From a virus, in IMG/VR virus record IMGVR_UViG_3300045988_139260: 50,790 nucleotides of DNA; one strand, written 5' to 3'. Shown here one piece after another: positions 2,160-49,717 of this stretch. How positions within the stretch are numbered: position 1 is the stretch's first letter; every line of letters begins with the position of its first letter. The notes beneath the pieces were generated by a model. The model did no database searches, had not been told where the DNA came from, and saw only the letters and a program-made list of their open reading frames with translations. Both the position numbers and the translations under genes were made by a program.

Positions 2160-3984
2160 TTATCAGTTAGAAGCCCTGCAATACTTGGCCCCTCCGGAAG
2201 AGTTGACCGTTTCGGAATGGGCTGAAAAATATCGTATGCTTGATTCTAAGTCATCAGCGATGCCTGGTCCGTGGAGTAATGACATCACACCCTATCTTGT
2301 TGGAGTGATGGATGAATTTAACAATTACGAGACCGAAAAGATTATATTCGTCAAGCCGACACAGGTTGGAGGAACCGAGGCTCTACAGAATATGATCGGG
2401 TATATCGTGATGCAGGATCCGGCACCAACGATGATAGTATATCCGACAGAGACGCTTGCGAAGTCTGTGTCGGAAAACAGATTACAACCGGCACTCAAGG
2501 CCACGCCAAAGATAGCGGAGAAGTTCGATGAGACATCGCCTCTGCTAGAGCTTCATTTTGAAAGCATGTACATCACGCTTGCCGGTTCAAATTCGCCTGC
2601 AGGTCTGGCCAGTAAACCTATCAGATTTCTGATGATGGATGAGGTTGACAAGTACCCCGGAGCCAGCAGTAAAGAGGCGGACCCAATTAAGCTTGCAATG
2701 GAGCGAACTAAAACGTTTCATAACAAAAAAGTATATATCACAAGCACACCGACATTAAAGACTGGTCACATTTGGAGAGAGAAAGAGAGCGCTGATATCG
2801 AAAAGCATTTCTTTGTTCCTTGTCCTCACTGTGGCGAATACATTGAATTTAAGTTTCAGAACATTCGTTTCCCGGAGGATAAAGACCTAAGCAATGCAGA
2901 CCGGGCGGAGCTTGCCACATATGTATGTCAGAATTGCGGATGCATTATTACTGATAATGACAAGCACAACATGCTAAAGCTCGGAGAATGGCGAACCGTG
3001 AAGCACAACACCAAGTTCGCAAGAAACGTTGCTTTCTGGATAAATACACTTTACAGCCCATTTGTCAGATGGGCGCAGATAGTAAAGGAGTTCCTTGATG
3101 CAAAGGACGATCCTGAACAATTACAAAACTTTGTCAATTCATGGCTTGCAGAGCCGTGGGAAGATACAAGACTCAAGACAAGTGAAGATCTTGTCTTGGA
3201 GAGACAGACCGAGGTACCGCAGTATGTAGTGCCTAAATGGGCCAAGCTTCTTACAGGCGGGGTTGATGTTCAGGAGACATGCTTGTATTGGACTATCAGA
3301 GCATGGGGCAATTATCTGACAAGTCAGAACATAGCGCACGGACAGGCTCTATCATTTAATGAGGTTGACCAGGTAATGAACCTGCAATATGTAACAGAGG
3401 ATGGAGAGCCGATGATAGTTAATCTGTGTCTGGTTGATTCAGGAGACCAGACGGATGATGTATACGATTTCTGTGCAAGCCGGTCTGATTACGCATTGCC
3501 AGTCAAAGGTTCAAGCCACGCACAGCTCAGTCAGTTCAAACTTAGCAAGATTAACAAGGTTGAAAGCAGCGCTTATGGTATGACGCTCGTCCTTGTAGAT
3601 GGTGACAAATACAAGGATCTGATAGCTGGCCGAATGATGAGGAAGAACGGCCGTGGTAGTTGGATGGTATATGCAGGATGCGATCTTGAGTATGCCAAGC
3701 AGGTAACAGCAGAGCACAAAGTAAATGTCAAGACATCTAACGGCATCAAGCAGGTATGGAAGCCTAAAAGTACGCATCTAGATAACCATTATTTAGATTG
3801 TGAGGTGTATGCAGCAGCGGCTGCCGATATGCAGGGCGTCAGAACACTTCATCTGATGAATAATGAGGAGAAGCCTGTTCAAGACAAGGCTAATATACAG
3901 AATGAACCGCCTGAGACACCGGAAGAGCAGTGGATCAAGGCTAATGATAATTGGATTCAGGAAGGAGCAGGCAATGGCAGATAA
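2089..3984 (+). CDS. terL: Terminase large subunit, GpA family
   Basis: LTVSEWAEKYRML N-terminal motif, KPTQVGGTE Walker A-like, LMMDEVDKY Walker B, Cys pairs CPHCG/CQNCG. Start uncertain: ATG 2089 overlaps terS by 71 nt, and in-frame TTG codons lie at 2110 and 2125. Confidence 0.9.
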   Translation: MRSHRRTLRRHQLPRPRKKIKVTDYQLEALQYLAPPEELTVSEWAEKYRMLDSKSSAMPGPWSNDITPYLVGVMDEFNNYETEKIIFVKPTQVGGTEALQNMIGYIVMQDPAPTMIVYPTETLAKSVSENRLQPALKATPKIAEKFDETSPLLELHFESMYITLAGSNSPAGLASKPIRFLMMDEVDKYPGASSKEADPIKLAMERTKTFHNKKVYITSTPTLKTGHIWREKESADIEKHFFVPCPHCGEYIEFKFQNIRFPEDKDLSNADRAELATYVCQNCGCIITDNDKHNMLKLGEWRTVKHNTKFARNVAFWINTLYSPFVRWAQIVKEFLDAKDDPEQLQNFVNSWLAEPWEDTRLKTSEDLVLERQTEVPQYVVPKWAKLLTGGVDVQETCLYWTIRAWGNYLTSQNIAHGQALSFNEVDQVMNLQYVTEDGEPMIVNLCLVDSGDQTDDVYDFCASRSDYALPVKGSSHAQLSQFKLSKINKVESSAYGMTLVLVDGDKYKDLIAGRMMRKNGRGSWMVYAGCDLEYAKQVTAEHKVNVKTSNGIKQVWKPKSTHLDNHYLDCEVYAAAAADMQGVRTLHLMNNEEKPVQDKANIQNEPPETPEEQWIKANDNWIQEGAGNGR

Positions 3985-4210
3985 CAATGAAGTACCAGTA
4001 ACAACAGAAGGTCTGCTTAATAGCGTCAATTCAGCGATAGCAGCAATCACAGTTGGAGGACAGTCATACAAGATAGGTTCGAGAAGCTTAACAAGAGCTG
4101 ATTTGAAGCAGTTGTATACGATGCGAAATGATCTAAGAGCTGAAGTAGCGGCGCAGGGAGCAAGCTCATTGCTTGATGACTGCTATGTAGGTATTTTTTC
4201 AGGGAGGTAA
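3974..4210 (+). CDS. Head-tail joining protein, gpW-like
   Basis: 78 aa from ATG 3974 with GAAGGAG RBS (3961-3967). Sits between GpA terminase and portal as lambda W does. GGQSYKIGSRSLTRADLKQLYTMRNDL resembles the gpW pattern. The longer track ORF from 3863 overlaps terL and is unlikely. Confidence 0.65.
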   Translation: MADNNEVPVTTEGLLNSVNSAIAAITVGGQSYKIGSRSLTRADLKQLYTMRNDLRAEVAAQGASSLLDDCYVGIFSGR

Positions 4211-4212
4211 GA

Positions 4213-5733
4213 ATGGGCTGGTTAGATAATGTCATAGCAACCATATCCCCGGCAACTGCGTATAAGCGTGAGACATACAGACAGGCATATACAGCACTTA
4301 AGGGATATTATGATGCCGCAGACAAGACCGGTATCAATCAAAACTGGCGTGTGAGTAATACATCGGCTGAGTTTACTGATAGGTACAGTAGAGACGATGT
4401 GAGGGCAAGAGCCAGAGATTTGGAACGTAACAGCGATGTTATGAACTCTCTGACAGGAGCTTTCAAGAGGAATGTTGTCGGAGGAGGCTACCGTATTCAG
4501 GTTCAGACTGAGGATGCGGAGTTGAACAAAAAAATAGAAAAGGCATGGAAAAAGTGGTGCAAGGCAAAGAACTGCGACGTTACCGGAACCCAGAGCCTTA
4601 ATCAGATAATCAGGATGGCCGTCGAGCGCAAGCGAATTGACGGAGGCATATTATTCGTCAAGAGATACACTAAACAGGCTTTTGTGCCATTTCAGTTGCA
4701 GATGCTTGAGGTTGATGAGCTTGATACATCAATCATGAACGCTAAAAACAGAGGCAATAAAGTTGTTGGAGGCATTGAATACAATTCATTCAACAGACCG
4801 GTCGGTTACTACATTAGGCAGTACGACATAGATGGATATTCGCCAAGAGACCCTGTGTATATCGAAGCGAAGGACGTTATCTTTTATTTTTCAAAAAAGC
4901 GCCCATCGCAGCTTAGAGAAATCTCCGATATGACGCCCACGATACCGCGTATCAGGGATGTTAATGAATTTATGACGGCCGTGTCCGTAAAGGAGCGAGT
5001 TGAAGCCTGTCTCGCAGTATTCATTAAGAAGGCTCTCCCGATGACCGGCATCGGAAGAGGCAATAACAGTCAGAGTATGGCCGACAAGATTACTTACGAG
5101 GGAAAGACTATAAGCCCGGGCATGATTAAAGAAATGAATGTCGGAGATGAGATACAGGTTGTCAATCCTTCCGGCCAGGGCGCAGACGCGACAAGCTATA
5201 CAAAACTACAGCTCAGGCAGATAGGCGCAGGCCAAGGACTGAGCTACGAGGCCACGAGCAGGGATATGGCAGAGAGCACTTATTCATCGGCCAGACAAGG
5301 CATGATTGAAGATGATATGACGTACTGGGAAGAGAAAGAATTTCTAGTTGAAATACTTGATGAGATATATGAGACCTTCCTGATATCGGCGGTGCTTCGT
5401 GGAGTTATTGATATTAAAGATTTCTGGGAGAAAAAGGATGAATACATGGAACATAATTGGATTCAATCCCCTAAACCATGGATTGACCCTCAGAAAGAAT
5501 CAAATGCAAATATGACCGCATTAAGGACCGGTCAGAAAACATACAAACAGATTGCAGCCGAGAATGGCCGTGATTGGAGAGAACAGATTGACGATATGGC
5601 CGAGGTTATCAATTACGGTAATGAAAAAGGCGTAGATATGGGAGGTGTTCTATTTGGAACGACGAACGAAAGTCCGGACAGCGTACCTGATGAGGGAGAT
5701 GACGAAAGCGGACAGCGAAAGAAAAAAGACTGA
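4213..5733 (+). CDS. Portal protein, lambda gpB family
   Basis: 506 aa directly after the gpW-like gene (order Nu1-A-W-B). N-terminal NQNWRVSNTSAEF...RARARDLERNSD motif typical of this portal family. Confidence 0.85.
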   Translation: MGWLDNVIATISPATAYKRETYRQAYTALKGYYDAADKTGINQNWRVSNTSAEFTDRYSRDDVRARARDLERNSDVMNSLTGAFKRNVVGGGYRIQVQTEDAELNKKIEKAWKKWCKAKNCDVTGTQSLNQIIRMAVERKRIDGGILFVKRYTKQAFVPFQLQMLEVDELDTSIMNAKNRGNKVVGGIEYNSFNRPVGYYIRQYDIDGYSPRDPVYIEAKDVIFYFSKKRPSQLREISDMTPTIPRIRDVNEFMTAVSVKERVEACLAVFIKKALPMTGIGRGNNSQSMADKITYEGKTISPGMIKEMNVGDEIQVVNPSGQGADATSYTKLQLRQIGAGQGLSYEATSRDMAESTYSSARQGMIEDDMTYWEEKEFLVEILDEIYETFLISAVLRGVIDIKDFWEKKDEYMEHNWIQSPKPWIDPQKESNANMTALRTGQKTYKQIAAENGRDWREQIDDMAEVINYGNEKGVDMGGVLFGTTNESPDSVPDEGDDESGQRKKKD

Positions 5734-9734: not shown

Positions 9735-10268
9735 ATGACACCATTGGAACTACAGGATGACTTAGTGAATGAGCTCAAGACAATGTTTGAGCAACACACT
9801 TTCAAGGTGCCTGATTATGACACTATTGAAGAACCTGACGAGAACAACGAAATAGAGCCAAGATTCCAAACACCTACACCGTTTAAGCGGGTACCGCTTA
9901 ATATATATGCTCAACAGTTACCGGTACAGGAAAGCGACGATGATGCGGATCCAGTACCATATATCATAGTCAGGCTTAATAGCGGTCATGATATCGGGGA
10001 TGGAGCCAGCGTTAATGCTGTGAAGCTCATAGTAATTATCGGAATATGGGATGATGACCCTACAAATCAGGGGCACCGAGATGTGATGAACATAATCCAG
10101 GATATATACGAGCGATTCAGCAAAACACCTAGTTTAAAAAATAAATATGCCTTTGCAGGCGATTTCAATTGGGCACTCCAAGAGGATGCGTATTTCCCAT
10201 ATCACTTTGGAGCCTGCAGTATGGCGTTCAATATTCCAGCAATAAGAAGGGAGGACCCATTAACATGA
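9735..10268 (+). CDS. Hypothetical tail-completion/sheath-terminator candidate
   Basis: 177 aa with GGAGGAG RBS. Lies two genes upstream of the sheath gene. Family not recognised. Confidence 0.45.
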   Translation: MTPLELQDDLVNELKTMFEQHTFKVPDYDTIEEPDENNEIEPRFQTPTPFKRVPLNIYAQQLPVQESDDDADPVPYIIVRLNSGHDIGDGASVNAVKLIVIIGIWDDDPTNQGHRDVMNIIQDIYERFSKTPSLKNKYAFAGDFNWALQEDAYFPYHFGACSMAFNIPAIRREDPLT

Positions 10269-22240: not shown

Positions 22241-22843
22241 ATGCCACAGCCATTCAATAATGCAGTCATGACCAATGCCGGAGCAGCGCTCTTGACGAGA
22301 GCTCAGGCGGGACAAATCAAGATTCAGTTCACCCGCATCGCAACTGGTAACGGAAGCTACACTGCAGACGAAAAAACGCTTGCCAGATTGCAGCAGGCGA
22401 CAAAACTCAAATCACTGAAAAACAGCTATCCACTATCGGATATAGATGTATTCAGTGATCATTCAGTTAAGGTCACAGCCTTAATTACCAATCAGGATCC
22501 TGTGTCTAAAAAGACACTTGTATCTGCAGGCTATTACATCAACGAGATGGGACTGTACGCTAAGCCACAGGGCGCCGCAGACAGTCAGGAGGTACTCTAT
22601 TCGATTGTTGTTACGGCCGGCACAAACGGTGACTTCATGCCACCATACAACGGTTACAATCCGGCGCAGATAACACAGGACTACTTTGCAACTGTCAACA
22701 ACAGTGCTCAGGTAACAATCAACACAGCCGGTGCAGCTTTACTTGCAGAGGATGCCAATAAGCTGAGAGACGATAGCACCCATATGAAATGCAAGCTAGG
22801 TATCGATAATGGTCTGATATATGTACAGGCTATCAGCGAATAG
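22241..22843 (+). CDS. Tail fibre base (gpH N-terminal/tail-collar-like domain only)
   Basis: 200 aa. AVMTNAGAALLTRAQAGQIKIQFTRIATGNG...INEMGLYAKP parallels the P2 gpH N-terminus. Confidence 0.7.
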   Translation: MPQPFNNAVMTNAGAALLTRAQAGQIKIQFTRIATGNGSYTADEKTLARLQQATKLKSLKNSYPLSDIDVFSDHSVKVTALITNQDPVSKKTLVSAGYYINEMGLYAKPQGAADSQEVLYSIVVTAGTNGDFMPPYNGYNPAQITQDYFATVNNSAQVTINTAGAALLAEDANKLRDDSTHMKCKLGIDNGLIYVQAISE

Positions 22844-22864: not shown

Positions 22865-24139
22865 ATGGAAGTTGGAGAAAAAATCTATGTAGCCGATAAG
22901 GCCACACTTGACAAGGTATACAACATTCTTGCCGCTGACCCGGTATGGGGATTCATTGAGCACATGGATGTTAAGAGTCCATCAGCAAGAGTCACACCAA
23001 TCGGACTCAATAAGAATTATAAAAATGTAACAAGAAATGGTGGCACCGGAGTCGTGTCTCTTAACGACTGGGCAGATCACCCGGTTATCAAGGCAAATAA
23101 GCCGTACATGGTTAAGGCAGATGGTACCCCGGACTATAGATTATCTGAGACAGATTATACCAAGAAGCTTGACGGTACCGGTTCAGATGTGGCCAACACA
23201 TCATACAATGGCGGTGCTTTTGCGTGGTTCCCTAAAGTATACAAATATGAAAAGATGGAGGGCAATGATCGTACAGTCCTCTTCTCAATGACACCAAGAG
23301 AAGGATATGAGCCAAACGGCTTCATCGATCCATCGAACAATGAGCTTGAGGGAGTGTGGCTGCCAATGTTCTACGGTTCAAGACTTGGCGCAGATGGTTC
23401 AACGCCTAAGATGGTATCACTTTCGGGATTACAGCCATCGTACAATACAACAACGGCACAGGAGCGCACAGCCCTGCAGAACTTTTCAACAAGAGCCATG
23501 TTCCTCGGTGGACCTATCGTGGAGACAATCATTGACTTCTTGATTATGATCGCAGGAACCACAGACCTTCAGACAGCTTTCGGTCACGGCAACTGCAGCG
23601 GATATGACGCGTCGCAGGCGCCTACATACGGTGTGAAGCAGAACGCCGTAGTTGGCGGCGGACAGTTCTACGGAACCGACGACAATAAGAGCCTTAATAA
23701 GATATTCCATTCGATTGTGCTCGGAAGCTATCAGCAATGGATGAGAGACCCATATGAACTTGTAGTCAATGGAAGAGTCAAGGTCAGCAAAAATTACACT
23801 TACGACCTAACAGGAGCCACATATTTAGATACAGGTATCAATGTACCAAACGGTCCTGACAGATGGGAATATCCATTAAGATATCAGACAGTCCCGGGAT
23901 ATGGTTCAATCCCTGCCGTTGTATTCGATGGCGGTTCCACAGGAACCGCCTCATGTGATGGTTCGTATAGACATAAGTCACAAACTACAATAACGGCGGT
24001 GACCCTTCGGTTCGGTCTTTGCAACGATGGGTTCGTCGACGGCCCGCGTGCGCGTCTTTGGAACAATGACGCTTCTAATGCGGACTGGCACGTTTCCGCT
24101 GCCGAACTTCTCTTGCCACCTGTCGGCGTAGCCGCTTAG
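22865..24139 (+). CDS. DGR target: distal tail fibre/receptor-binding protein with C-terminal variable region
   Basis: 424 aa. The last ~48 codons contain the VR (LCNDGFVDGPRARLWNNDASNADWHV), the spacing pattern expected of C-type-lectin-fold DGR targets. Confidence 0.85.
   Translation: MEVGEKIYVADKATLDKVYNILAADPVWGFIEHMDVKSPSARVTPIGLNKNYKNVTRNGGTGVVSLNDWADHPVIKANKPYMVKADGTPDYRLSETDYTKKLDGTGSDVANTSYNGGAFAWFPKVYKYEKMEGNDRTVLFSMTPREGYEPNGFIDPSNNELEGVWLPMFYGSRLGADGSTPKMVSLSGLQPSYNTTTAQERTALQNFSTRAMFLGGPIVETIIDFLIMIAGTTDLQTAFGHGNCSGYDASQAPTYGVKQNAVVGGGQFYGTDDNKSLNKIFHSIVLGSYQQWMRDPYELVVNGRVKVSKNYTYDLTGATYLDTGINVPNGPDRWEYPLRYQTVPGYGSIPAVVFDGGSTGTASCDGSYRHKSQTTITAVTLRFGLCNDGFVDGPRARLWNNDASNADWHVSAAELLLPPVGVAA
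23995..24103 (+). repeat. DGR variable repeat (VR)
   Basis: 109 bp, identical to TR 24260-24368 except at 9 positions, all of which are A in TR. Confidence 0.95.
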
Positions 24140-24144
24140 GGGGT

Positions 24145-24179
24145 CTGGGGGTGCGCGTTTATTTGCGCAATTCCCCCAG
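24145..24179 (+). promoter_or_regulatory. GC-rich hairpin downstream of VR (DGR target-recognition hairpin and/or terminator)
   Basis: ctggggg-tgcgc-gtttattt-gcgca-att-cccccag: outer 7-bp and inner 5-bp perfect stems, starting 42 nt after the VR end. Confidence 0.6.
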
Positions 24180-24259
24180 TAGAGATTATTTTGTAACTTT
24201 ATAAACTAGGTATCTATCCTTGACTGATATAACAGGGGAGGAAGCAGGCGTCACCTCTG

Positions 24260-24368
24260 GGCGGTGACCCTTCGGTTCGGTAATTGCAACAATGGGTTCA
24301 TCGACGGCCCGCGTGCGCGTAATTGGAACAATGACGCTTCTAATGCGAACTGGAACATTTCCGCTGCC
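24260..24368 (+). repeat. DGR template repeat (TR)
   Basis: 109 bp non-coding copy of VR with 23 adenines, mostly in AAY triplets in the VR frame. Lies between target and RT. Confidence 0.95.
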
Positions 24369-24556
24369 TTTATTCTATCCATAATTGGAATATAGACATA
24401 AAGCTTGGCATCCTTCCTACACCACTGACGATTGAGACATCGTTATATCCGCAATTATTTGTTTTGGTGAGTGAAAATTAACTCGATACAGGGCACGCGG
24501 TAAAGCGGTCGCACCTGCCGCGTGTAGGGGATAGAAGAAAAAATATTCGAGGTACT

Positions 24557-25705
24557 ATGAAACAGTACAAATATCTGTATCACAAAATGCTTGATGAAAA
24601 TGTTATCAGACAAGCATACAAAAAGTTAAGGAAAGGAAAAACAAAACGTAAAGAAATAATCGCTATTGATGCGAACCTGGATGAAGAAGTCGTAACAATG
24701 AGAAGGATGATTGAAAATACTAAGCCACCCGATGTAGAGGTTGAGCATCCGGAGTTGTCGTACAGGCCATGCAAAAGAACCCCAAAGTACATCTATGAGC
24801 ATGGCAAACAAAGAAGGATATACATGCCGGAGATTCATGAGCAGTGGTTACACCACATCATAGTATTGATTCTTGAACCGATAATCACGGCTACGTCATA
24901 TCCCTATTCCTGCGGTAGCTTTCCGAAGAGAGGAGCTCATTATGGCAAGAAAAGATTACTTAAATGGATAAGAGATGGAACTAACATCAAGTATTTTGGA
25001 AAAATCGACATTAGACATTTCTATGACAATATCAGAATTGACACACTGATGAGAGAGCTTGCTATCAGAATTAGTGACACATGGTTTCTGTATGTAATTA
25101 GAATATGCATGGCCGGTTTTTCAAAAGGTATTCCACTCGGATTCTATGTATCACAGTGGCTGGCCAACTATTTGCTGGAACCGCTTGACGAGTTTATCAG
25201 GAAGCTGGGCTTTGAAAAATATATGCGTTACATGGATGACATGGTATTTTTCGGCACCGCAAAGAAAAAGATTCATGCAGCAATTACTCAGATCAGAATG
25301 TTTATAGGAAGGCGCTACCGACTTAAGCTGAAACATAACTATCAGGTCTGCAGGTTTTATTATGAATCAAAGAGGCGTGCAGTTGGAAGACCGCTCGATT
25401 TTATGGGATTTCTGTTCTATCGAAATAAAACTATCATGCGAAAAAGTATCATGCTAGAAGCGGTAAGGACAGCAAAGAAGCTTAATGCGGCCAAGAGTGC
25501 CGGGAGAGGCTTTTATATCAGACACGTTAAATCGATGCTTAGTCATATGGGATGGTTTAGTTGCACCAATACTTACGATTGTTACAACATACACATTAAG
25601 CCACTTGTGAACATCACAAAACTTAAAAAGATAGTATCAAAATTAGACAGGAGGAAAAATCATTATGAAGCAGTGGAAAGAAGAACATTGCAGTACGCAG
25701 CCTGA
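24557..25705 (+). CDS. DGR reverse transcriptase
   Basis: 382 aa. YMDDMVFF (YxDD) catalytic motif, GIPLGFYVSQWLANY (LGxxxSQ motif characteristic of DGR RTs). 188 nt downstream of TR. Confidence 0.9.
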   Translation: MKQYKYLYHKMLDENVIRQAYKKLRKGKTKRKEIIAIDANLDEEVVTMRRMIENTKPPDVEVEHPELSYRPCKRTPKYIYEHGKQRRIYMPEIHEQWLHHIIVLILEPIITATSYPYSCGSFPKRGAHYGKKRLLKWIRDGTNIKYFGKIDIRHFYDNIRIDTLMRELAIRISDTWFLYVIRICMAGFSKGIPLGFYVSQWLANYLLEPLDEFIRKLGFEKYMRYMDDMVFFGTAKKKIHAAITQIRMFIGRRYRLKLKHNYQVCRFYYESKRRAVGRPLDFMGFLFYRNKTIMRKSIMLEAVRTAKKLNAAKSAGRGFYIRHVKSMLSHMGWFSCTNTYDCYNIHIKPLVNITKLKKIVSKLDRRKNHYEAVERRTLQYAA

Positions 25706-25928
25706 GGAACTGGAACTTATCGCGCATGGCATATATATGCAGCGCAAGGACATTGAGGCCGTAGAGCATGAGGCTACAGAGGATATGGCAGCGTACACAG
25801 ACTATGTATGCCAGAGCAGAGAAATCACCGTATCGGAGTACGAAATGCTCAAGAGTATTGAGAGCATCAATACTGACAAGGCAATTGAAGAGTATACATT
25901 ACAGCTTATGCAGGAAGGAGCAATCTAA
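25665..25928 (+). CDS. Hypothetical acidic protein (XkdW-like position)
   Basis: 87 aa with strong RBS (ACAGGAGGAAAAATCATTATG). Overlaps the RT 3' end by 41 nt and precedes XkdX. Confidence 0.55.
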   Translation: MKQWKEEHCSTQPEELELIAHGIYMQRKDIEAVEHEATEDMAAYTDYVCQSREITVSEYEMLKSIESINTDKAIEEYTLQLMQEGAI

Positions 25929-25930
25929 TC

Positions 25931-26074
25931 ATGGCAAGTACATTGGCATTAGTTTTCAAGAGACTTTATAACAAAGGTGAAATCACAAAAGAGGATGTAG
26001 TCGTGAGAGTGAAGTCCGGAAAAATTACAAAGGCAGACTACAAGTATATCACCGGAGAGACATACAATGGATAA
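25931..26074 (+). CDS. xkdX: XkdX family protein
   Basis: 47 aa, below the ORF-track cutoff. MASTLALVFKRLYNKGEITKEDVVVRVKSGKITKADYKYITGETYNG matches the XkdX pattern (G.IT.E.Y..ITGE). Confidence 0.75.
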   Translation: MASTLALVFKRLYNKGEITKEDVVVRVKSGKITKADYKYITGETYNG

Positions 26075-46501: not shown

Positions 46502-46951
46502 TTACACACGTATCGCACCTGCTGCTGCCTGCAGGATTTTTTTATCAAAGCCGAATGAATCATATCCGGAAGCTATCACGTTGTAGTAGTAATAGCTTGG
46601 CTTTGTAGGCTTGCCCTGATTCATCAGGTAAATCATGCCGGTAACGGTTGAGCCGTCATCCATCAGGACCTCGATATCTTCTTTTCGGTAGAGGTGTGGA
46701 TAGCCTTCATATCGGTCAAGATTTTTTTCGTCGGCGGCTGAGATCGTGAAGAGCCCAACCGGGACATCTGCGCTCCCGCCCGGCAGGACGGTTGCAACAC
46801 CATTGCCGCGGGCATTTCCCCAGAATGTCAGGGAATAATTTTTTAAAACACCACTGCCGAATATTTCGGCATCCGGACAGCGGAAGCGCATCTGCTCAAG
46901 ATGTAAGTTTGAGCCATAAGCGACATAAAGTTTTTTGTTAGATTTTCTCAT
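46502..46951 (-). CDS. Gamma-glutamyl cyclotransferase (GGCT/AIG2-like)
   Basis: 149 aa from ATG 46951 (AGGAGG RBS). YVAYGSNLHLEQMRFRCP ... DRYEGYPHLY are the YGSN and catalytic Glu motifs of GGCT/AIG2. Confidence 0.8.
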   Translation of the reverse strand: MRKSNKKLYVAYGSNLHLEQMRFRCPDAEIFGSGVLKNYSLTFWGNARGNGVATVLPGGSADVPVGLFTISAADEKNLDRYEGYPHLYRKEDIEVLMDDGSTVTGMIYLMNQGKPTKPSYYYYNVIASGYDSFGFDKKILQAAAGAIRV

Positions 46952-47051
46952 AATGAGTACCTCCTTAGATATAATTTTCGATGTATTTTTTAAACCTGCC
47001 ATCATCAGCGCCGGGAGGTCAGCTCCGGCGGACGCCCGAAGGCGTTTCGGC

Positions 47052-47444
47052 TTAATATTCACACTGTGTCAGCATTGGGTAAGGATCCGGATAATTTCTT
47101 GTCGCAAGTTTTACGCAGCGTTTCAAGATATAATCTGCTTCGGATTTTGAAAGCCCGATCAGGTTTCCGTCTTCATCAGATTCGGCGGCAACGATAAAGA
47201 GATTTCCGACAAGCTGTGCCTGGCCTAAATTATTTATCGCGGAAATTTTTGGAGCCGCATTAAAAAGTCCTTCATCATCACAGATAATCGTGAATTTTTT
47301 TCGACCAATCCTGCGCTGGACTATATCAATGCAAGTGCAGTTCAGGACTTCATAATACTTTTCGAGATCATCCGCAATTTCGATTGCATCCACTTTTTTA
47401 TTTTCCACGTCAACCAGTACACCGCGTAATTTTTTGTTTGCCAT
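47052..47444 (-). CDS. DUF3846-like protein
   Basis: 130 aa from ATG 47444 (AAGGGGG RBS). LRGVLVDVENKKVDAIEI...LNCTCIDIV...IICDDEGLFN...GNLFIV..SDEDGNLIGL fits my recollection of DUF3846. Confidence 0.6.
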   Translation of the reverse strand: MANKKLRGVLVDVENKKVDAIEIADDLEKYYEVLNCTCIDIVQRRIGRKKFTIICDDEGLFNAAPKISAINNLGQAQLVGNLFIVAAESDEDGNLIGLSKSEADYILKRCVKLATRNYPDPYPMLTQCEY

Positions 47445-47461
47445 AATGAGCACCCCCTTAT

Positions 47462-48670: not shown

Positions 48671-49717
48671 TTAATTATTAACCGGATCTAAGAAATATTT
48701 ATCCTTATTCTGACCATGACGCCAAGCGGCGTCGCCGGTCAGATTCTTAATCATATGCGCATGAGGATTTTTGAAGGCGTCGCCAATCCAGCCCATACCA
48801 ATAAGCCATGTGCGCATAGCAAATTTTTCATTGCCAGCCTGCATTATCGGATTTTTGGTTGTGGCTATGCGGGAGCTAAATAAAGCCTTGGCGTTCATGC
48901 TCAGGACTAAGAGCACAAAACTGCGGATCTTGCCGGCATGCAATGTTGCATCAAAGGCACGGATCTCGATCGTGTTGCAACCCTGGCCACGAGTAGAAAA
49001 GTAGCGGTGCAGGTTCAGCAGATGATATCTGCTGCCGTCGTAATGATTAAGTCGGCAGCTTTCAGGACGGCCGTCGCTGAGCTCCTCATACCACACACGC
49101 TCGATGTCCTCTATCGTCTTGCACTTTTGCACGCGGTTAATGAACTGTGTCGGGGTTCCGTGATCGTAGCCGGTACGGCGGTTATTGATCGGGACACACC
49201 ATGCACAGACACGGCTGTCGGCCACACCTAAGGCCTTGTATAACATCTCTTCTTGAGCGTATACAAGGTTTATGAAGTTCTTTAGTGTCTGAGCTGTATG
49301 CTCACGACTTCCTACATGTACATGTATACCGCAGCCATAGCGGGCACCGGTACGAGCCCCGCCCTGCTTTAGAAGCCTAACCAGTTGCTGCAGTGTGTCC
49401 ATGTCTTCAAGGGTTAAAGGCGGGGTGTTGAGCTCGCATGAGTAGTCGCCACGGCTTGCTGCTGTACGGCCGTTGGAGTCAACCGCATTGATCGAGCAAT
49501 CAGAAACGAACTGCCATACACGGCCGCCGACAAATTCAGTAACGGTGTACTTGTGATAAGCCCCGCCGACGTATTGAACAGAGCCGCCAACTAGGCTGGC
49601 GCAGAGGGCTGCTGCCTTTTCCCTTGTGATTCCGGTCATCTCAATCTCGACGCCGTAAGTCATGTTATTGATCATTCCGCGAAGATGCTCGCGCTTTTCA
49701 GTATTTGTCATTGCCAT
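48671..49717 (-). CDS. Amidoligase-family enzyme (GS-like COOH-NH2 ligase, Amidoligase_2-type)
   Basis: 348 aa with AGGAGG RBS. YGVEIEMTGITREKAA, ELNTPPL, GIHVHVG, NTIEIRAFDATLH fit the amidoligase pattern as I recall it. Confidence 0.75.
   Translation of the reverse strand: MAMTNTEKREHLRGMINNMTYGVEIEMTGITREKAAALCASLVGGSVQYVGGAYHKYTVTEFVGGRVWQFVSDCSINAVDSNGRTAASRGDYSCELNTPPLTLEDMDTLQQLVRLLKQGGARTGARYGCGIHVHVGSREHTAQTLKNFINLVYAQEEMLYKALGVADSRVCAWCVPINNRRTGYDHGTPTQFINRVQKCKTIEDIERVWYEELSDGRPESCRLNHYDGSRYHLLNLHRYFSTRGQGCNTIEIRAFDATLHAGKIRSFVLLVLSMNAKALFSSRIATTKNPIMQAGNEKFAMRTWLIGMGWIGDAFKNPHAHMIKNLTGDAAWRHGQNKDKYFLDPVNN

Follow-up and report, generated by a model that had tools for sequence, protein, structure and literature searches.

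Does a diversity-generating retroelement (DGR) rewrite the tail-fibre tip of a gut phage without the accessory protein Avd, and if so, which parts of the locus would do the work? This question is raised by positions 22,865 to 25,705 of IMG/VR virus record IMGVR_UViG_3300045988_139260. We analysed the record's whole 50,790-nt stretch (hereafter the window), which is essentially a whole temperate myovirus. A sequence-only reading had described here a complete DGR (target gene with variable repeat, template repeat, DGR-type reverse transcriptase and hairpin) aimed at the distal tail fibre and without a recognisable Avd, and our analyses bear that description out. The locus is very probably a functional DGR of the type carried by Faecalibacterium phage FP_Epona, ordered target, template repeat (TR) and reverse transcriptase (RT) with no accessory gene, in a temperate myovirus of Lachnospiraceae/Oscillospiraceae. 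Its core consists of the following features:

22865..24139, + strand: DGR target, a 424-aa variable receptor-binding fibre module with a predicted Mtd/TaqVP-like fold (phrog_5302, AlphaFold2 (AF2) model, Foldseek)
23995..24103, + strand: variable repeat (VR), codons 378-413 of the 424-aa target
24260..24368, + strand: TR, non-coding, with 23 A and nine AAY codons in the VR frame
24557..25705, + strand: DGR reverse transcriptase, 382 aa, isoelectric point (pI) 10.0 (RVT_1, phrog_1423, bRT 8ub7)

The two repeats, each 109 nt long, align without gaps and differ at nine positions, and at all nine the TR base is A. This alignment reproduced both the coordinates and the substitutions that had been listed from the sequence. 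The random odds of nine mismatches all landing on the 23 A of 109 positions are C(23,9)/C(109,9) = 1.9e-7. As had been claimed, most of the TR adenines belong to AAY triplets (nine AAY codons account for 18/23). In the target open reading frame (ORF; 22865..24139), whose 3' end holds VR, each of the 23 is at codon position 1 or 2, as expected of a DGR. Mismatches limited to TR adenines, another DGR trait, are likewise found in 63 related virome loci with the same cassette, which together hold 771 VR/TR mismatches at TR-A sites; the few non-A mismatches in this count are a product of the end-extension rule used. The TR-encoded peptide, TLRFGNCNNGFIDGPRARNWNNDASNANWNISAA, aligns with that of BPP-1, ALFGGNWNNTSNSGSRAANWNNGPSNSNANIGAR, without gaps and with 18 of 34 residues identical (counted by eye). 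Searching both strands of the window revealed no further copy of VR.

The repeats also behave as mutagenic homing predicts when closely related genomes are compared. Contig L084 (CAMBEF010000001), 46.5 kb long and taken from a GTDB genome bin, is 96.5% identical to the window across the DGR region. The two sequences differ at 11 positions within the 109-nt VR, every one of them a TR-A position, while the stretch from 24104 to 24800, which takes in the hairpin, TR, spacer and RT 5' end, shows zero differences, so TR is identical. VR differences only at TR-A positions beside an unchanged TR fit the prediction for mutagenic homing, here from a comparison of genomes, not reads, and this comparison is the nearest available stand-in for a read pile-up. 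Comparing VRs that share one TR was dropped as circular, because the repeat finder accepts mismatches at A sites only, and the unbiased window-L084 alignment was used instead. Judged from these comparisons, the element is a real DGR, apparently active in rewriting a gut-phage tail-fibre tip.

The enzyme encoded downstream of TR is of the DGR type. It matches RVT_1 (E 2e-13) and PHROG 1423 (phrog_1423; E 3e-86), with bRT, the DGR enzyme of BPP-1, as its best relative of solved structure (PDB 8ub7; E 5.6e-16). The YMDD and LGxxxSQ-type motifs previously noted in this ORF both align to bRT, RYMDDM to RYMDDI and GIPLGFYVSQ to GIPIGSLTSQ. The DGR clade is marked by [I/L]GxxxSQ in motif 4, YxDD and the lack of a maturase or endonuclease domain, and we assign the enzyme to it on motifs and best matches. 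The DGR-RT family was absent among the NCBIfam matches, the top one being the group II intron RT/maturase model TIGR04416 (E 8e-27) at 94 bits with a cut-off of 300; the NCBIfam models for retrons and defence-associated RTs (DRT) scored far under their cut-offs. With bRT as the best PDB match, membership of phrog_1423 and a group II score below cut-off, classification of the RT agrees with the type first read from its motifs.

What does this element rewrite? The 424-aa target matches phrog_5302 'tail protein' (E 5.5e-86) and shares 62% identity with a protein of FP_Epona that is annotated as 'BPP-1-like major tropism determinant' and has been placed in the FGE/Mtd superfamily (Cornuault et al. 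2018, PMC5883640). The fold gave no match at the sequence level in Pfam, a PDB profile search or a PDB peptide search, and hhalign of the target with Mtd returned E 0.28. A first AF2 model from a shallow alignment (at least 70% identity) reached a predicted local distance difference test score (pLDDT) of 49.5 and was discarded. The final model, which needed relatives at 25-30% identity gathered from related loci, has a pLDDT of 93.3 and a predicted template-modelling score (pTM) of 0.91. Its significant Foldseek matches in the PDB are DGR variable proteins only. Thermus TaqVP (5vf4) is matched at E 5.6e-8 with probability 1.0, and five variants of BPP-1 Mtd (1yu0-1yu4) at E ~3e-3; the global TM-scores are modest (0.43 and 0.27). 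DGRs place VR on variable proteins with a C-type-lectin or immunoglobulin (Ig) fold, and the predicted resemblance of the target to TaqVP and Mtd (pLDDT 93) is consistent with this; the sequence-only reading had expected a C-type-lectin fold.

The ORF immediately upstream completes the fibre:

22241..22843, + strand: fibre-base ORF, 200 aa, with an N-terminal collar-type domain (phrog_7037 tail fiber, E 2.5e-43)

This ORF matches PF12571 weakly (E 9e-4, under cut-off); its counterpart in Roseburia phage Shimadzu, with 49% identity, is residues 4-162 of a single-chain tail fibre. Because the upstream 200-aa ORF is a fibre-base domain like the N-terminus of the Shimadzu fibre, the 424-aa target is indeed the separate distal module that had been proposed. 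One related prophage (L108) has two target-like ORFs, at 1424-2707 and 3339-4649, before its only RT; in the second, the C-terminus is disrupted in frame, and this may be a duplicated or decaying target.

Beyond the repeats and the two proteins, the cassette includes a set of nucleic acid elements around TR and after the target stop codon:

24145..24179, no strand assigned: GC-rich hairpin/cruciform just 3' of the target stop codon, 41 nt beyond the VR end
24234..24250, + strand: 5' strand of the TR-bracketing duplex (AGGGGAGGAAGCAGGCG), pairs with 24403-24419
24369..24380, + strand: TR 3' flank TTTATTCTATCC, putative template strand of a cis-priming duplex, 11/12 complementary to 24529-24540
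24403..24419, + strand: 3' strand of the TR-bracketing duplex (GCTTGGCATCCTTCCTA), abuts the RT-4 motif, pairs with 24234-24250
24418..24536, + strand: RT-4 RNA motif (Rfam RF03025), structured DGR RNA between TR and RT
24529..24540, + strand: RT-4 tail GGAUAGAAGAAA, putative primer strand, with a conserved GAUAGAA that is unpaired in the Rfam consensus

The gap between TR and RT is 188 nt, the length given earlier for an untranslated spacer, but it is not featureless, as the spacer holds the RT-4 RNA at 24418-24536. The match covers the full length of the model (1-118) and scores 116.3 bits against a gathering score of 73.5. All 16 scanned loci of the family, FP_Epona included, have RT-4 in this position, and it is also present in the related prophage L115. 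A structured TR-RT spacer is the norm, not an oddity: the BPP-1 spacer is Rfam RT-10, and the survey that listed RT-4 among the RT-associated motifs guessed that other RT motifs serve other DGRs (Weinberg et al. 2017, PMC5737381). A second, more distant and Avd-less Clostridia-phage DGR lineage (L118-L137) has the RT-18 motif directly upstream of its RT (e.g. 4908-4989 in L127), and several unexplained Rfam RT-n motifs look like lineage-specific DGR spacer RNAs.

A second RNA element encloses TR. Here, a 17-mer starting ~25 nt before TR pairs with a 17-mer ending at the RT-4 boundary, forming a duplex that is missing from the Rfam RT-4 model because TR separates its strands. Across 33 distinct loci, an average of 13.0 of 15 positions pair in cis, compared to 9.9 in trans, when strands are swapped between loci; at least 13 positions pair in 26/33 cis combinations versus 9% of trans, and none of 2000 permutations reached the observed mean. 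The inner columns show 2-5 Watson-Crick pair types each. In BPP-1, the avd:Sp 'cPRT Stop' duplex is essential and cDNA synthesis ends beside it; the accompanying survey of duplex conservation covered Avd-containing DGRs only (Handa et al. 2024). The bracket duplex is the topological equivalent of avd:Sp and, by analogy, may likewise stop cDNA synthesis.

The third element is a candidate for priming. The TR 3' flank is complementary at 11 of 12 nt to the RT-4 tail, GGATAGAAGAAA. The 6-bp core of this complement (TCTATC) is invariant in the family, one flanking pair occurs as C:G (7) or U:A (5), and 73% of cells are paired in the correct register versus 44-56% when it is slid. TR:Sp is the template-primer duplex of BPP-1; the flank/tail duplex would, by the same logic, set a priming adenosine beside C24368, the last base of TR/VR homology. 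As structured RNA flanking TR in the manner of BPP-1, RT-4 and the covarying bracket duplex are well supported, while the primer duplex is suggestive only. Two other candidates were dropped: a second TCTATCC copy before TR (24213), found in only 4/45 relatives, and a local hairpin after TR (TCTATCC...ATAGA), confined to the closest relatives and given up in favour of the RT-4 tail.

The GC-rich hairpin after the target stop codon had been described as perfect. The hairpin is real (DNA fold -13.3 kcal/mol, z = -4.9, equalled by no shuffle), but its 12-13 pairs are interrupted by a 3-nt ATT bulge. Its outer stem CTGGGGG/CCCCCAG (YTGGGGG/CCCCCAR) is fixed across 42 distinct related loci, in which the inner stem is either compensatory (TGCGC/GCGCA, TACGC/GCGTA, TTGC/GCAA, CTGC/GCAG) or absent. 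The locus therefore has the conserved GC-rich hairpin 3' of VR seen in DGRs, and by analogy this hairpin may aid target recognition. A scan for promoter and terminator consensus sequences inside the cassette found none.

From the repeat anatomy, RT type, target fold, VR turnover, covarying RNA elements and absence of Avd in this locus, we propose the following mechanism. The late tail operon would be transcribed across the target gene, TR and spacer. The resulting DGR RNA would fold so that a ~15-bp duplex (24234-24250 with 24403-24419) closes TR as a loop, with the RT-4 domain after it. The RT would bind this RNA, probably with cis-priming by the RT-4 tail GGAUAGAAGAAA paired to the TR 3' flank, and would copy TR backwards from C24368, misincorporating opposite adenines. 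The cDNA would then replace VR in the fibre-tip gene, aided in target recognition by the GC hairpin after the stop codon. The predicted outcome is ~14 randomised codons on the ligand-binding face of the Mtd-like C-type-lectin domain, and hence a change in host-receptor specificity. Four parts of this scheme are drawn by analogy from BPP-1: priming in cis, a stop at the bracket duplex, what the hairpin does, and that RT and RNA are enough by themselves.

Does the phage nevertheless have an Avd? The interval from target stop (24139) to RT start (24557) has ORFs of 43-52 aa at most, in agreement with the earlier claim that it holds none of at least 60 aa. In 63 relatives, the median distance from target stop to RT start is 438 nt, filled by TR and the RNA motif. 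Some relatives have 95-120-aa ORFs between target and RT, which we considered as Avd candidates and rejected: they cross TR or are antisense, and they are not conserved. We also searched the whole window. None of 55 small ORFs matched an Avd family at E < 4e-4, and bAvd found no match among ten basic Avd-sized ORFs even at E <= 1. At E <= 0.01, phrog_3206 ('Avd protein of DGR') found none among nine of these ten, and phmmer with the BPP-1 and Shimadzu Avds found no match in the window (best E ~0.7). The positive controls worked, with BPP-1 Avd matching PF22296 strongly and Shimadzu Avd, which Pfam missed, found by phrog_3206 only. This window-wide profile search thus detected no Avd, a protein that is typical of the BPP-1 type and not universal among DGRs.

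The absence had also been called unusual, and that part does not stand. According to published surveys, some 20-29% of all DGRs have no accessory gene. Of 372 curated DGRs, 75 are TR-RT cassettes without an accessory gene, and one entire RT lineage lacks avd, for which Avd-independent homing has been proposed (Wu et al. 2018, PMC5758913). The DGR of FP_Epona itself has been known since 2018 to lack an Avd homologue; only other phages of Faecalibacterium yielded one (Cornuault et al. 2018, PMC5883640).

An Avd-like factor might instead act in trans, either as a divergent protein encoded elsewhere in the phage or as one that comes from the host or from a different prophage. Divergence among Avd families is great, to the point that Shimadzu Avd escapes Pfam, and five small basic ORFs in the window have no family assignment. 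However, the window ORFs match neither bAvd, phrog_3206, BPP-1 Avd nor Shimadzu Avd, a profile search of avd-less genomes did not find avd elsewhere in the genome (Wu et al. 2018, PMC5758913), and the cassette is just as compact in >60 relatives from various hosts. We consider such a factor unlikely.

A different way to replace Avd would be through the first of two small ORFs downstream of the RT, which had been suggested as a partner of the enzyme:

25665..25928, + strand: conserved acidic ORF, 87 aa, pI 4.4 (phrog_20201, unknown function), overlaps the RT 3' end by 41 nt
25931..26074, + strand: XkdX-family small protein at the tail/lysis module boundary (PF09693, E 5e-10)

The 87-aa protein would then be a DGR accessory factor, a non-homologous Avd replacement translationally coupled to the RT. 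Its position fits: the ORF overlaps or abuts the RT stop in 76/77 IMG/VR loci with room for it and in 34/34 family genome loci, and a second lineage, whose RT is only ~32% identical, has it after the RT as well. There is even an acidic accessory gene, CH1, that is confined to avd-less DGRs, although CH1 is 160-169 aa long and comes from Bacteroides (Wu et al. 2018, PMC5758913). Searches of Pfam, NCBIfam and the PDB returned no relative of the 87-aa protein, nor did it match XkdW. It is acidic, unlike the RNA-binding Avd, XkdX is invariably the next gene, and the family reaches most of the Clostridia-phage DGR loci examined. In L136 (6062-6436), a member of the 87-aa family carries an XkdX domain (PF09693, E 8e-8) fused at its C-terminus, a Rosetta-stone tie of the orphan family phrog_20201 to XkdX, and in L125 the slot is occupied by a tail assembly chaperone (PF16778). 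L186 and L187 (~3635-4035) are natural DGR-deletion derivatives: TR and all but the last ~70 RT codons are gone, yet the target, the 87-aa-like ORF and XkdX are intact. Finally, a small acidic ORF comes after the RT in the Avd-bearing phage Shimadzu too. Altogether, the fusion, the chaperone and the gene order suggest that the 87-aa ORF is probably a tail-fibre/XkdX-module gene rather than a DGR part, and fits that module better than the role of RT partner. On the simpler reading, TR and RT have the fibre gene on one side and the fibre/XkdX-module genes that follow it on the other, and an accessory role for the 87-aa protein is improbable.

A fossil cassette, in which the TR/VR repeats are kept and retrohoming has ceased in the window genome, is less probable again by a clear step. 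The case for activity in the window genome is built on genome comparison, and the relatives L186 and L187 show that RT deletion is possible. Set against this, the RT ORF is unbroken and retains its catalytic motifs, the RNA elements are all intact, and TR, spacer and RT 5' end are the same as in L084, yet VR differs at 11 TR-A sites. Scarcely credible is the reading of the RT as a group II intron or retron enzyme with coincidental repeats, which could appeal to the top NCBIfam match (E 8e-27) and to the 'retron-type' labels of homologues in some phage records, and which we count as already refuted by the repeat, RNA, RT and L084 data, given a group II score of only 94 bits against the 300-bit cut-off, an Rfam scan that detects RT-4 only in the region and no intron or retron RNA, an LGxxxSQ where the group II motif would be, and an A-only repeat pattern with a chance of ~2e-7.

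Several points weigh against our conclusion that the locus is a functional FP_Epona-type DGR. Avd proteins are poorly conserved, as the escape of Shimadzu Avd from Pfam illustrates, and a divergent or host Avd may act in trans. Current activity in the window genome is deduced from comparing genomes, not reads. The window's own bracket duplex pairs at only 12/15 positions in the ungapped register. For the flank/tail complement, the core is invariant with little covariation, and 9/500 shuffles reach its score. In addition, the order of strands differs from BPP-1: there the primer strand precedes the stop strand, and here the putative one follows both the stop strand and RT-4.

The most far-reaching version of our conclusion is also the most tentative: it is conceivable, though we rather doubt it, that this lineage makes adenine-mutagenic cDNA with RT and RNA alone, with RT-4 and the bracket and flank/tail duplexes doing the positioning otherwise done by the Avd pentamer. 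If true, this would be a natural two-component DGR, and a two-part system of RT and RNA would be attractive for DGR-based directed evolution tools, all of which, to our knowledge, currently use bRT with Avd. DGRs aimed at tail fibres are common in gut phages, and the features flagged here had already been described for a common gut-phage DGR type, so the locus is not a new kind. The DGR itself is ordinary, and the Avd-less design has been in the literature since 2018 (FP_Epona). What makes the locus useful is that it exemplifies the Avd-less class cleanly and compactly and in abundance, with more than 300 virome relatives of the same layout and more than 30 in genomes, and its RNA anatomy (RT-4, bracket duplex, flank/tail complement) offers constructs for probing Avd-free RT action. 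What we add is modest: the assignment of Rfam RT-4 to a DGR lineage, a covarying bracket duplex in an Avd-less DGR, and the tie between the 87-aa ORF and the fibre/XkdX module.

The remainder of the window encodes packaging and head functions (gpA-type terminase, lambda-type portal, capsid), tail proteins (tube, gpU, baseplate W/J/I), a holin and lysis module, and integration and replication proteins (large serine recombinase, DUF927 primase-helicase, SNF2 helicase). Relatives number 312 in IMG/VR, and GTDB genomes, mostly of Lachnospiraceae, contribute 67 loci; Roseburia faecis and Dialister are the annotations on homologues of the 87-aa protein. A nucleotide search of the 7 kb around the locus against a phage collection gave no match. 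Other observations lie away from the DGR. A type II hammerhead ribozyme match (46990-47052, - strand; 39.8 bits, gathering score 37) has an intact CUGAUGA + GAAA core and GUC cleavage triplet and sits at the junction of the - strand ORFs 46502..47062 and 47052..47453. The related prophage L115 has a skipping-rope RNA (RF02924, 63 bits) at 10071-10149 on the - strand, ~4 kb downstream of its DGR. The window also encodes an Amidoligase_2 protein (48671-49717, - strand; E 2.5e-47) and, elsewhere, a small GGACT/AIG2-like (gamma-glutamyl cyclotransferase-like) ORF; together these may form a peptide-modification accessory module in the early/accessory region of the phage.

How does the locus compare with known systems? 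With BPP-1 (mtd-avd-TR-brt), it shares TR-to-VR transfer that is adenine-specific and directed at the C-terminal, lectin-fold part of a fibre-tip protein. It also shares an RT whose nearest solved relative is bRT, TR peptides that align in register, a GC hairpin 3' of VR, and a structured spacer RNA with a duplex joining the sequence upstream of TR to that downstream of it. Unlike BPP-1, the window cassette has neither Avd nor room for one, and its spacer RNA is RT-4 rather than RT-10. Its putative primer strand comes after the stop strand instead of before it, and its TR/VR homology stops at the putative initiation site, without the extended initiation-of-mutagenic-homing pair (IMH/IMH*). Among published classes, architecture A1 and the avd-less Lineage 3 have the same core of TR and RT, lack an accessory gene and have their target next to the core on its upstream side; Lineage 3a, however, occurs in Bacteroides only and has CH1, a gene absent from the window (Wu et al. 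2018, PMC5758913).

Roseburia phage Shimadzu (LR596903) shares the baseplate synteny and a homologous fibre N-terminal domain (49%), and has a DGR in the same slot. That DGR (L083, 4992-8505) is a different one: an Avd (phrog_3206) lies between the fibre gene and TR, the RNA is RT-2, the RT is beyond the reach of tblastn, and a single ORF encodes both fibre base and variable domain. The comparison suggests that whole DGR cassettes are exchanged at this fibre position.

The closest cultured relative is FP_Epona (Eponavirus), with RT, target and 87-aa ORF 62%, 62% and 55% identical to those of the window. In the phage collection searched there is no match at the nucleotide level, and the closest relatives of the window come from Lachnospiraceae, not Faecalibacterium. 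The two phages nevertheless share the same order of baseplate J, Tail_P2_I, fibre base, Mtd-like target, TR, RT, 87-aa ORF, XkdX and lysis genes, and in both the 87-aa ORF overlaps the RT end, the RNA is RT-4 and a large serine recombinase is also encoded. Thus, in gene order, RNA family and homologous proteins, the cassette in the window is of the FP_Epona type.

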